Source of the DNA: an uncultured Gemmatimonadota bacterium | GTDB taxonomy: Bacteria; JAAXHH01 | Direction of reading: 5' to 3' | Assembly: GCA_951812955.1 (NCBI GenBank) | Contig: OX638340.1 | Coordinates: 3,749,437 to 3,813,436, forward strand | Length of the DNA: 64,000 nucleotides | Shown here: positions 26,779 through 29,932 of the stretch, piece after piece | Layout of the letters: the number at the start of each line of letters is the position of its first letter | Position numbering within the stretch: position 1 is the stretch's first letter | The notes under the pieces: generated by a model | The model's database searches: none | What the model saw: the letters and a program-made list of their open reading frames with translations, nothing else | What the model was told of the DNA's origin: nothing | Position numbers and translations under genes: made by a program

Positions 26779-27555
26779 GTGACAGCATTCGAAGGAAAAG
26801 TGGTCATCGTGACAGGGGGCGCCAAAGGTATTGGCGGCGGCATCGTCCGCGCCTTCGCCGGTGAGGGGGCGCACGTCCTTTGCGCCGATATAGACGACGA
26901 TGCAGGTGCGGAGATCGTCGCATCCAGCGACCGGATCCGCTACGTCCACGCCGACGTGACCACGAGCGAAGTATGCCGTTTCCTGGTGGAGACCGCGATG
27001 GAAGCCTGGGGAGGCGTCGATATACTCTGCAACAACGTGGGGATACAGCCGACGTCGAGCTATCTGCCCGCTCACGAAATGTCCGAAGAGCAGTGGGACC
27101 GGATCATAAATGTCAACCTGAAGAGCCGATTCCTGATGGTCAAATACTGCGTTCCCGTGATGAAACAACGCGGGGGCGGCGTGATCATCAACACGGCGAG
27201 CGTTCAGGGACTGCAGTCGGCGAAGGGTATATCAGCCTACGCGGCGAGCAAGGGGGGCGACCTGTCACTGGTGCGTCAACTTGCCTTGGATTACGCCGAG
27301 GACAATATCCGCGTGGTGGCGGTCAACCCGGGCACCATCGAAACGCCCCTCCTGCAGGAGGCCATCGATTCGATCGGCGGCGCCGAGGACGAAATCCGGA
27401 CAGATATGGCTTCCCGGCACGCCGTGAACCGGCTCGGCAGTCCGGAGGATATTGCCAATGCCGTGCTGTTCCTGGCCAGTGACCGGGCCTCCTTCATCAC
27501 GGGTGAATACGTGAACGTGGACGGGGGACTGATGGCTCGGGGGGCGTGGGCCTAG
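26779..27555 (+). CDS. Short-chain dehydrogenase/reductase (SDR)
   Basis: TGGAKGIGGG cofactor motif, YAASK catalytic motif. GTG start. Its 3' end is duplicated at 29105-29174. Confidence 0.85.
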   Translation: MTAFEGKVVIVTGGAKGIGGGIVRAFAGEGAHVLCADIDDDAGAEIVASSDRIRYVHADVTTSEVCRFLVETAMEAWGGVDILCNNVGIQPTSSYLPAHEMSEEQWDRIINVNLKSRFLMVKYCVPVMKQRGGGVIINTASVQGLQSAKGISAYAASKGGDLSLVRQLALDYAEDNIRVVAVNPGTIETPLLQEAIDSIGGAEDEIRTDMASRHAVNRLGSPEDIANAVLFLASDRASFITGEYVNVDGGLMARGAWA

Positions 27556-27556
27556 G
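27492..27556 (+). repeat. Left copy of ~65-70 bp imperfect direct repeat (3' end of SDR gene)
   Basis: cttcatcacgggtgaatacgtgaacgtggacggggg...gtgggcctagg matches 29105-29174 with a few mismatches and one indel. Confidence 0.7.
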
Positions 27557-27954
27557 GGGGTGTAACAAAGCTACTGCGGTACATGCTGCTATAGGAGCAT
27601 TACAAGAAAACTCGACGTGAAGCCGGCACATTCCCCATTCTTGGATCACGTTTGTTTTTTTCATTCGAGAAACCCGCAGTGATTCCGACTGAGGAAGAAA
27701 CCGGTTCAGATGCGGATAGGAAATCGCAATCCGAGCGCTGTGAAAGTTTCGTCAGTACGATGAATACATTTTAGCGTAGGAAAGTTAGGATATGAGCGTC
27801 GAGTTGATCGGGATAATCAGTATGGGCGTTGCCCTGGCTGGACTTATTCTGGCGTCTAGGCGGGATATCAATCTCCGTCCTGTATCCCTGGAACAGGGCA
27901 GGCAGACCTGAGAGAGCGTATGGCAAGACTGGATGAGATGCTGGAAGGACGATT

Positions 27955-28812
27955 CTACACAACACGTTGATCAGCTCGTAATTGTCTTTTTGCAGCGATG
28001 CGTTTGCGCCTGAGCATCCCAGCCCAATACTGAATCCCGCTATCCTTAGATTCCCTTGCACACCTCCGCACTGCAGCACGAAGCACTTTATTATTCTTAA
28101 GGTTTTCGATGACTTCTAGTCGTGGGCGAACGGGTCCACGACTTAACCACTCCGCTGCGTCCCACGCCGGGTCAAGTTTGCTCTCGGCCGATATTGCTTT
28201 TCTAGCCTCTTCCTCGATTCGGTGGTTTATGTCTTTTGGGGTCCAACTGAATATGAGCGACAATAGAGCACGTATAATCTCACGATAGACATAGCCAATC
28301 ATTGGTTCGGCAGTGTTGTTACGACCCTCGATACTTTCGTACCTTTTTGCTACAAAGACTTCGGCTTTGCCATGTTCCTTAAAATAGTCAACAATATTTG
28401 TGTTGGGCTGGATGGACGTGACGCTTTCCAGATATTGGATGGTGCTGTCGAAACATCGCTCCAGTTCATTAAATGCCGTTATGTTGTGCTTTTGAACATC
28501 CGCCAACAGTAGATGTAGTTTGTGCCCACGAGAACGAACCTGATTCTCTGACAGGCCGCCGTCTATCAGAATCGCCTTTAGGCCCTTCTCGATTGCTTCG
28601 TGAGCATTCTTGGTGTCCGCCCTGATCCTTGCCTTTGAGTATGCTGTGGAGAGTAGTCCAATCTGAAGGAGTCTTTTGAAGAATTCATCTTCAGATTGTG
28701 CATCTAAGTTTGCTGCATCAGTCAGGCGACTATGGATATCGCGCGACGGTCTATCCAGTTCATCGAGGGCATACCTTAGGTCTGCCCATACGTCTTCCTT
28801 TTTTAACGACAT
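27955..28812 (-). CDS. Hypothetical protein with HEPN-like Rx4-6H motif (possible RNase toxin/Abi-like effector)
   Basis: 285 aa, alpha-helical, motif ...AIEKGLKAILIDGG...NQVRSRGHKLHLLLADV... (R-x4/6-H). Basic C-terminal tail. No obvious recombinase motifs. Confidence 0.4.
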   Translation of the reverse strand: MSLKKEDVWADLRYALDELDRPSRDIHSRLTDAANLDAQSEDEFFKRLLQIGLLSTAYSKARIRADTKNAHEAIEKGLKAILIDGGLSENQVRSRGHKLHLLLADVQKHNITAFNELERCFDSTIQYLESVTSIQPNTNIVDYFKEHGKAEVFVAKRYESIEGRNNTAEPMIGYVYREIIRALLSLIFSWTPKDINHRIEEEARKAISAESKLDPAWDAAEWLSRGPVRPRLEVIENLKNNKVLRAAVRRCARESKDSGIQYWAGMLRRKRIAAKRQLRADQRVV

Positions 28813-28985
28813 TTTAATGCCTGCCTTTCAGCACACACAGAACAGATCCACTTGTTGTCAAGAATGATCAGACTTTCTACAGTCTTCTCTTTGTCCAATT
28901 CGTGGTTTGCAATTGATTTCAGGCTGCGGCAAGGCATACCTGAACAGCCGTGAAACGCCCATTGGCTAAAATCCGAAATAACCAC
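28803..28985 (-). CDS. Small (60 aa) four-cysteine zinc-ribbon-like protein, translationally coupled to the downstream HEPN-like gene
   Basis: CSGMPC ... CSVC ... C pattern; 10-bp overlap with the start of the 27955-28812 gene; lies in the low-GC islet. Confidence 0.3.
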   Translation of the reverse strand: MVISDFSQWAFHGCSGMPCRSLKSIANHELDKEKTVESLIILDNKWICSVCAERQALKCR

Positions 28986-29104
28986 GATTCAATAGCCTGG
29001 CCTTATGCCGCACAGAATAGATAGATCCGGATTAGACCCTGGAATCTGACAATGAGTTACTAGTCAGGGCGGGATTGGTGCTATCGAAACCGCTGCCGAT
29101 CATT

Positions 29105-29174
29105 CTTCATCACGGGTGTATTCGTGGACGTTAACAGGGACTTGATGGGATGGTCCGCAAGCACGTGGGCCTAG
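29105..29174 (+). repeat. Right copy of imperfect direct repeat (degenerate duplicate of SDR 3' coding end, FITGVFVDVNRDLMGWSASTWA*)
   Basis: Aligns to 27492-27556. Its TAG stop overlaps the sdhB stop on the opposite strand in a palindromic CTAG, as does the left copy. Confidence 0.7.
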
Positions 29175-29932
29175 GCCGGCTCGTCGCTGTCCTTCGACTT
29201 GAAGATGCGCAGGAGCCGGTTGAGGGGGTCGTAGAACTCGCCGACGACCCTTTCCTTCAGGGGAATGATGGCGTTGTCCGTGATCGTGATCTCTTCGGGA
29301 CAGACGTTGGTGCAGCACTTGGTGATGTTGCAGTAGCCGATGCCCTGGTCGTCCTTGAGGTCGCCGAGGCGGTCCCCGGTGTCGAGGGGATGCATCTCCA
29401 GGGCGGCGTTGTGCACCATGAGGCGCGGGCCGATGAACTCCTCGTGCAGGTCATGCTCCCGCAGGACGTGACAGACGTCCTGGCAAAGAAAGCACTCGAT
29501 GCACTTGCGGAACTCCTGCACCCGCTCGATATCTTCCTGGTCCATGCGCCAGGTACCGTCCTCGGCGTCTGGCTTGCGGGGCTTGAAGGGCTTGATCTTT
29601 TCCTTCGCGCGGTAATTCCAGGACACGTCGGTGACCAGGTCCCGTATCGTCTTGAAGGCCTTCATCGGCTCGATCGTGATGGCCTCGTCCTCGGGCAGGT
29701 CGCTCATCCGCGTCATGCACATCAGCTTCGGGTTGCCGTTGACCTCGGCGGAACAGGAGCCGCACTTGCCGGCCTTGCAATTCCAGCGGACCGCGAGGTC
29801 CGGGGCCGATTCCGCCTGGATCTGGTGCACCGCGTCCAGCACTACCATGCCTTCGTCGATCTCGGTGGAGTAGTTCTCGAAATCGCCGGTCTCACCATCG
29901 CCTCGCCAGATTCGGAAGTTGGCCGTCGCCAT
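29171..29932 (-). CDS. sdhB: Succinate dehydrogenase/fumarate reductase iron-sulfur subunit
   Basis: 2Fe-2S CxxxxCxxC (CKAGKCGSC), 4Fe-4S/3Fe-4S motifs (CIECFLCQDVC, CTNVCP). 253 aa. Confidence 0.9.
   Translation of the reverse strand: MATANFRIWRGDGETGDFENYSTEIDEGMVVLDAVHQIQAESAPDLAVRWNCKAGKCGSCSAEVNGNPKLMCMTRMSDLPEDEAITIEPMKAFKTIRDLVTDVSWNYRAKEKIKPFKPRKPDAEDGTWRMDQEDIERVQEFRKCIECFLCQDVCHVLREHDLHEEFIGPRLMVHNAALEMHPLDTGDRLGDLKDDQGIGYCNITKCCTNVCPEEITITDNAIIPLKERVVGEFYDPLNRLLRIFKSKDSDEPA

Follow-up and report, generated by a model that had tools for sequence, protein, structure and literature searches.

What does a short stretch of foreign-looking DNA, set between two metabolic genes, carry with it: two coupled genes or one? 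The question is raised by a 64,000-nt window, i.e. the whole stretch analysed here, from contig OX638340.1 of an uncultured Gemmatimonadota bacterium, in which composition profiles reveal a sole low-GC kilobase, an islet at ~27556-29095 with 46-49% GC versus ~60% in its flanks, located between a short-chain dehydrogenase (SDR) gene and sdhB. A first-pass annotation of the bare sequence had correctly placed two minus-strand open reading frames (ORFs) of 285 and 60 aa there (27955-28812 and 28803-28985, overlapping by 10 bp), had correctly quoted the motifs EAIEKGLKAILIDGG and NQVRSRGHKLHLLLADVQ in the larger and the Cys pattern in the smaller one, and had read them as a translationally coupled module of a Cys4 zinc-ribbon mini-protein and a HEPN-like protein. 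We find instead a single foreign HEPN-type gene and not a two-gene module, so that the main practical result is a corrective one, namely that the zinc-ribbon/HEPN module should not be carried forward.

A 285-aa gene under purifying selection with homologues in distant phyla

The 285-aa gene (27955-28812, minus strand) starts with ATG, is intact and keeps all residues that are invariant in its family; the ORF list, homologues, substitution rates and a structural model identify it as a real coding gene for a solo HEPN-T-like protein. By searching 5.8 billion proteins, 196 homologues were obtained, which are 66-100% identical among the matches listed and nearly all 278-301 aa long. The metagenome-assembled genomes (MAGs) bearing them fall into six groups, i.e. 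Chloroflexota (Dehalococcoidia and Caldilineaceae), Latescibacterota, Acidobacteriota (Vicinamibacterales), Alphaproteobacteria, Gammaproteobacteria and, with the window itself, Gemmatimonadota; MAG names, together with neighbours rich in ankyrin and fn3, are suggestive of marine sponge microbiomes. Going by its SdhA, the window comes from a Gemmatimonadota MAG, the closest named proteins being 93-99% identical and carrying the label Gemmatimonadetes. Pairwise ratios of non-synonymous to synonymous divergence (dN/dS) had a median of 0.29 over 120 pairs, and the frame is therefore under purifying selection. The between-phylum dS was merely 0.16-0.6, which indicates recent transfer, and the gene has ~50% GC while its hosts range from 51% to 70%. 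As for the genomic loci, a first single-protein scan of genome contigs had returned none and a scan of metagenome contigs only four.

Nucleotide similarity across the homologous loci comprises the gene, 16-70 nt upstream of it and, in eight loci, ~20 nt past the stop codon; by cross-locus blastn, the remaining islet DNA of the window was not found in other loci, a congener (locus L041) aside. Judging from these alignments, the HEPN gene travels between distant phyla as a unit of ~0.95 kb, composed of the gene and a leader of at most 70 nt. This 5′ leader (28813-28882, minus strand), delimited by cross-locus blastn and a listing of the upstream sequences, spans positions -1 to -70, and in many loci reaches no further than -35; it holds AAAGGCAGG, a Shine-Dalgarno-like stretch and likely the ribosome-binding site. 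The upstream DNA of ~20 distinct homologous loci is of three types, which have in common at most the 35-70 nt immediately preceding the ATG. The leader was also considered as a structured RNA and rejected, as only a small weak hairpin was predicted (z = -1.8).

Two further observations concern the edges of the unit. The motif GGAACTTCGTGAC occurs at differing upstream distances, at -55 in L004 and L005 and at -4 in L007, L013 and L036, and this shift in position suggests, at the sequence level, that the 5′ leaders are mosaics. At the other edge, the ~20 nt past the stop (AATTCGATATAATCGCC) are kept across phyla in L001, L004, L005, L008, L010, L011, L017 and L018 and are absent in the window; the conserved AATTCGATATAATCGCC may be a terminator, a promoter or a recombination remnant that delimits the mobile unit on its 3′ side.

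The 60-aa ORF, apparently a fortuitous frame

The 60-aa ORF (28803-28985, minus strand) straddles the 5′ boundary of the DNA shared between loci. Its reading as a zinc-ribbon antitoxin or regulator of a HEPN toxin draws on the same-strand 10-bp overlap, on the cysteines (C14x4C19 and C48xxC51, plus C59), on an intact frame that is 100% identical in L041, and on several other loci being open through the last 12-20 codons, which end in CSVCAERQALKCR and the stop codon. However, no homologue of the ORF was found among the 5.8 billion proteins, and only codons 36-60 lie within the shared DNA, leaving codons 1-35, including C14 and C19, outside it. Read from an ATG, the equivalent frame is 17-28 codons long in L008, L011 and L004; it lacks the CxxC in L005, and it is cut short or without a start in L003, L010 and L001. 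The region is absent in L007, L013, L014 and L036. A zinc ribbon would have two conserved Cys knuckles on beta-hairpins; here, none of the other loci has the first knuckle and L005 has lost the second, and in the window the CxxC derives from a TGTGTGTG run.

The overlap itself has a simple origin. Its stop invariably falls at +7 to +9, where a TAA or TGA results from the conserved Ser-Leu-(Asn/Lys) at the N-terminus of the HEPN protein, and any stop-free upstream sequence will consequently give an 'ORF' with a 10-bp overlap. A 60-codon open frame is not unusual at 47% GC, and dozens of ORFs of 30-100 aa are present in the window. The frame starts with GTG and has no clear Shine-Dalgarno sequence; its sole Pfam match was to the B-box, at 18 bits and under the 27-bit cutoff; and a single-sequence AlphaFold2 (AF2) model reached a predicted local distance difference test score (pLDDT) of 43, which is weak evidence. 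The complete identity in L041 carries no information, given that the surrounding segment is itself 98-100% identical there. From these comparisons the 60-aa ORF appears to be a fortuitous frame; that it is a functional partner is very improbable, and we hold the coupled toxin-antitoxin pair to be just as improbable.

Search for other partners

No equivalent of the 60-aa ORF was found in ~20 other loci and no neighbour gene recurred in ~17 independent contexts, i.e. the conserved, co-oriented and adjacent partner of a type II toxin-antitoxin system is missing, and the module proposed earlier dissolves on both counts. An MNT nucleotidyltransferase gene is adjacent in none of the loci, the sole one being 3 kb away in L001. 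In the window, the HEPN gene stands alone between the SDR gene and sdhB in a metabolic setting, and the islet holds neither a Fic nor an MNT gene.

A HEPN toxin could also be held in check by an antitoxin other than a conserved adjacent protein. Candidates are RNA, a nucleotidyltransferase or Fic AMPylase encoded at a distance, and a small protein particular to each locus, for example that of a 39-aa ORF in the islet. Each of these was weighed. As regards RNA, Rfam gave no match in the whole window at the gathering threshold or in the islet at E≤5, no tRNAs were found and the islet has no tandem repeats; there is therefore neither a type III antitoxin-like array nor a tRNA attachment site. A gene overlapping in antisense or in an alternative frame was rejected too, as the stop-free stretches that all sequences share do not exceed 147 nt. 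The Fic genes vary in distance and orientation.

The 39-aa ORF (27792-27911, plus strand) is convergent with the HEPN gene and absent from every other locus in cross-locus blastn. It has one predicted transmembrane helix (MSVELIGIISMGVALAGLILASRRD...) and an AGGA 8 nt upstream. Compared with L041, where the counterpart was called as a 59-aa gene, ~6 synonymous and 2 non-synonymous changes are spread over its first 36 codons. With this coding-like pattern, the two minus-strand ORFs can no longer pass for the entire cargo of the islet. Going by its substitution pattern, the 39-aa ORF may be a genuine gene for a small membrane protein, belonging to the older islet DNA; it is not a conserved partner. 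Taken with these points, an antitoxin of this other kind is improbable, if less so than the coupled pair.

Four independent contexts (L001/L017, L019, L021 and L024) have Fic genes at a distance of 1-5 kb from the HEPN homologue. As a co-transferred partner Fic was rejected, its genes being merely 24-32% identical to one another, and a Fic AMPylase in a role like that of MNT for HepT is pure speculation.

HEPN fold and family assignment

The AF2 model of the 285-aa protein, built from the alignment, is all-helical, as the first-pass annotation had stated, with a pLDDT of 84 and a predicted template modelling score (pTM) of 0.80. It displays an up-down bundle of four helices in which an insert separates helix 2 from helix 3, the arrangement of the HEPN superfamily (Pfam clan CL0291), and at the level of this predicted structure the HEPN fold of the protein is shown. 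Named HEPN structures are tabulated beside the model, with one value each in a column that carries no heading: Csm6 (8jbc), 9.3; the HEPN toxins 7ae2 and 8xdj, 8.2; HI0074, 8.2; HepT SO_3166 (5yep), 8.0; AF0298 (2hsb), 7.7; and the Sacsin HEPN domain, 7.7. At the sequence level, PF05168 (HEPN) was matched by all 25 of the aligned close homologues at E≤0.1 (best 4.6e-5), a precomputed PF05168 match exists in eight homologues, and 15 of 26 sequences of a wider set match it, one above the gathering score, with the distant relative P0157 scoring 24.3 bits. One member of the family carries the NCBI label 'HEPN domain-containing protein'; the family, which the first-pass annotation could not place by eye, is thus in part already named.

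The HEPN core takes up approximately residues 41-186 (28255-28692, minus strand) and contains H71, E75-x3-K79, H97, R157-Y158-x3-E162 and E178. Next comes a helical C-terminal extension, which spans 27958-28254 (residues 187-285, minus strand) with R198, E200, W222, an RPRLE motif and W263, and is conserved in the alignments A1 and A3. The extension is specific to the 285-aa family and is carried by no other architecture, and beyond the core no match was obtained in Pfam, nor by Foldseek against PDB or BFVD. Full-length Foldseek searches against PDB and BFVD gave no significant match, single-sequence and profile searches of PDB sequences gave nothing relevant, NCBIfam gave no match for the 285-aa protein and PHROGs gave matches only at E>0.1. 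An exhaustive hidden Markov model search of 1.84 billion cluster representatives returned only 74 relatives. The 285-aa protein represents an uncharacterised subfamily of the known HEPN superfamily.

Among the distant relatives, P0154-P0194 are ~444-458 aa long and share residues 68-211 plus a C-terminal domain of ~190 residues, for which no significant Pfam match was found (one sub-threshold DUF6702 among ten scanned); they are a second uncharacterised architecture in the same clade. One such long relative has a GmrSD_C gene nearby. In L042, a 52-aa ORF precedes the 454-aa relative; it was considered as a counterpart of the small ORF and rejected, being devoid of Cys and unrelated.

Conserved polar residues and a putative active site

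Residue conservation was read from alignment A3, which reaches down to ~20% identity. There, H71, E75, H97, E178 and R198 are invariant, K79, Y158, E200 and W222 are at least 90% conserved, and position 157 is R or K throughout. H97 is invariant in A1 as well, and is modelled in the loop right after the Ex3K helix. The first-pass annotation had seen an arrangement resembling Rx4-6H, with an R…H dyad, in the 'VRSRGH' segment. The HEPN fold has stood, the Rx4-6H has not: the spacing R93-x3-H97 differs from it, and distant relatives lack R93, so that H97 is the only invariant half of the supposed dyad. On the whole, the first-pass observations are partly confirmed and their interpretation is partly supported.

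At the end of helix 3, the place of the canonical Rx4-6H, the sequence reads R157-Y-E-S-I-E162, i.e. the H is replaced by E. The acidic residue of the helix-2 Ex3[KR] is present as the invariant E75, followed by K79. Going by the profile and the order of the helices, R157 is presumably the 'RY' arginine of PF05168.

HEPN proteins have the Ex3[KR] motif in helix 2 and the Rx4-6H at the end of helix 3 (PMC3710099). In PF05168/AF0298-like proteins and AbiV, the motif retains its basic residue and has usually exchanged its H; for these proteins an alternative active site was proposed, to be completed by a further conserved histidine that the helix-2/helix-3 insert contributes (PMC3710099). As far as sequence patterns go, the present family fits this AF0298/AbiV-like 'alternative histidine' variant of HEPN-T, with H97 as the putative counterpart of the 2hsb histidine. 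The candidate residues for mutation are H97, R157, E75 and H71 rather than R93.

Genomic contexts and a possible function

A survey of neighbouring genes places many homologues beside defence, toxin-antitoxin or mobile genes, and they are not consistently embedded in metabolic operons, the outcome by which the first-pass reading would have been refuted. An Eco57I-like enzyme, HEPN_AbiU2 and Fic are found in L019; Fic, NERD, DUF4268, DUF3800 and a D12 methylase in L021; an MNT, a Fic gene and an HI1420-type antitoxin gene in L001; PIN, SSB and a large helicase in L003; TIR-NACHT and a transposase in L038; an integrase fragment in L039; and large serine recombinases on both sides in L013. Nine further loci have methylases, a type IIG enzyme, HepT, PIN, GNAT and several PADLOC candidates. 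In L024-L027, a PARIS-like AAA_15/21 and DUF4276 pair lies with the HEPN gene between DUF1156 and DUF499, and Fic and GmrSD are nearby. DUF1156 methylase and DUF499 genes, we assume, normally form one system, and the site looks like an insertion hotspot for defence genes inside another system.

Like the fold, the conserved polar constellation, solo status, mobility and the nature of the neighbours are shown here, and the protein is best read as a stand-alone HEPN-T-like RNase that acts as an abortive-infection or dormancy effector, a reading to which we give an even chance. RNase activity, dimerisation, a trigger and an anti-phage role are all inferred. Like other HEPN proteins, the protein would dimerise and be a metal-independent endoribonuclease, kept silent by its N- and C-terminal extensions until a trigger such as phage infection; once triggered, it would cut cellular or phage RNA and so bring about growth arrest or abortive infection. 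The gene itself is inserted in variable parts of the genome, where defence, toxin-antitoxin or recombinase genes are frequently present. A more far-reaching proposal, which we advance tentatively and hold to be somewhat doubtful, is that of an unrecognised single-gene abortive-infection (Abi)/dormancy system, with an AbiV/AF0298-type site and a novel C-terminal sensor, travelling as a ~0.95-kb recombinase-free cassette among at least six phyla that share a habitat.

Several points weigh against the effector reading. The PF05168 match of the window protein itself is marginal (16.8 bits, E = 0.008, residues 69-122) and below the 22-bit gathering threshold, and residues 150-169 of the AF2 model, the region of R157, have a pLDDT <50. 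PADLOC-DB v2 gave no family at E≤1 for the 285-aa protein, and relatives were found neither in IMG/VR nor among PLSDB plasmids or INPHARED (GenBank) phages. The association with defence islands is a survey observation, and two contexts, the window and L020, are metabolic. Finally, the reading gives no account of how a solo toxin stays harmless, and in the absence of the canonical Rx4-6H catalysis is not assured, some HEPN-T proteins being non-catalytic; HEPN-T members devoid of active-site residues have been noted (PMC3710099).

The last point, along with the missing PADLOC match and the two metabolic contexts, would suit an accessory HEPN-fold protein without catalytic or defensive function, for example a regulator or a protein that binds RNA or nucleotides, which happens to be mobile. 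However, H71, E75, K79, H97, R/K157, E178, R198 and E200 persist down to 20% identity in an active site-like set, and many of the contexts are those of defence, toxin-antitoxin or mobile genes. We regard the accessory protein as unlikely, though it is the least improbable of the rival explanations, and the stand-alone effector is kept as the preferred reading.

The islet edges and the congener L041

The islet is bracketed by an imperfect direct repeat of 53-80 nt (27483-27535 versus 29096-29148, 75% identical), whose arms were identified by alignment as the 3′ end of the upstream SDR gene and its degenerate duplicate. The left arm is the functional SDR 3′ end (27483-27555, plus strand), as determined from the ORF list, repeat search and alignment. 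The right arm (29096-29175, plus strand), found by repeat search and alignment, is a second, degenerate 3′ end that reads FITGVFVDVNRDLMGWSASTWA up to its stop; it has the same GTGGGCCTAGG ending, adjoins or overlaps the stop codon of the convergent sdhB, and has decayed from VDGG to VNRD. The duplicated SDR 3′ end looks, from its sequence, like an att-type footprint. No integrase was found within or near the islet, and no attC-like integron site was seen by eye downstream of the gene in the listed loci, for which no formal scan was made.

The congener L041 is collinear with the window across 11.7 kb at 88% identity and has the same islet at the same place. Its dS from the window was 0.36 for sdhA, 0.20 for sdhB, 0.34 for the SDR gene and 0.44 for a cyclase gene, versus 0.016 for the HEPN gene (dN 0.011). 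A segment at ~27930-29180 of the window is 98-100% identical to positions 5640-6890 of L041, and the islet part 27560-27830 is only 74% identical. The near-identical segment reflects either a recent exchange between the lineages by homologous recombination or an artefact of MAG assembly or binning; as a part of the tentative single-gene proposal, a recent inter-species sweep at one Gemmatimonadota chromosomal site is also suggested. A separate observation concerns the HEPN homologue P0011, just 86% identical to that of the window, and the SdhA P0208, 99% identical to that of the window, for both of which the longest contig is given as 255,092 nt; a very close relative may thus carry a different HEPN allele, at the SDR-sdhB site or elsewhere.

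These edges bear on one more explanation, that of a selfish mini-element whose own product drives its spread in a homing-like manner, by which a 0.95-kb unit without a linked recombinase would be explained. It would agree with shared DNA that consists of the gene and short ends, with the spread across phyla at low dS, with the near-identity in two congeners despite a dS of 0.2-0.44 in the flanks, and with the duplication of the target gene 3′ end at the islet edges. Yet DNA-transaction activity is not known for the HEPN fold, the loci have no terminal repeats or target duplications in common, their 5′ boundary is of three types, and the serine recombinases, integrases and transposases nearby in larger islands can explain the movement. 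The selfish element is accordingly considered a far-fetched explanation, on a par with the coupled pair.

Comparison with known HEPN systems

If the preferred reading of a solo HEPN RNase is correct and the protein is active, it would be a new defence or dormancy effector from Gemmatimonadota, Latescibacterota, Dehalococcoidia and Caldilineaceae, which are experimentally near-unstudied, and a further case of alternative-histidine HEPN catalysis, on which few experiments exist. The compact mobile unit with its low between-phylum dS is in addition a handy marker of recent gene flow in an uncultured community.

HEPN-T proteins of the AF0298-like PF05168 type (2hsb) are ~120-140 aa long, about half the length of the window protein, which differs from them by an N-terminal extension of 40-60 residues, an insert of ~30 residues before R157 and its unique 100-residue C-terminal helical region. 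Unlike typical HEPN-T genes, the window gene has no adjacent MNT nucleotidyltransferase, a partner that is typical and not obligatory, and the similarity is marginal. Compared with the HepT/MNT (DUF86) type VII toxins (5yep, 7ae2 and 8xdj), it has no Rx4H, no adjacent tyrosine-AMPylation partner and no PF01934 match.

Dormancy or abortive infection has been shown for other solo HEPN proteins, among them AbiV and the single-protein anti-phage effectors Tha and ApeA. In Tha, which is prophage-borne and has a cognate inhibitor, a canonical R265x4H270 is located C-terminally; in contrast to Tha and ApeA, the HEPN core of the window protein is central, its motif is non-canonical and it has no relatives in phage collections. 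It differs from AbiV in length and extensions and matches neither HEPN_AbiV nor any PADLOC Abi model. Like the lactococcal AbiV, however, it is encoded by a single gene and combines a HEPN fold that lacks the Rx4-6H with an alternative histidine at the HEPN-T position (PMC3710099).

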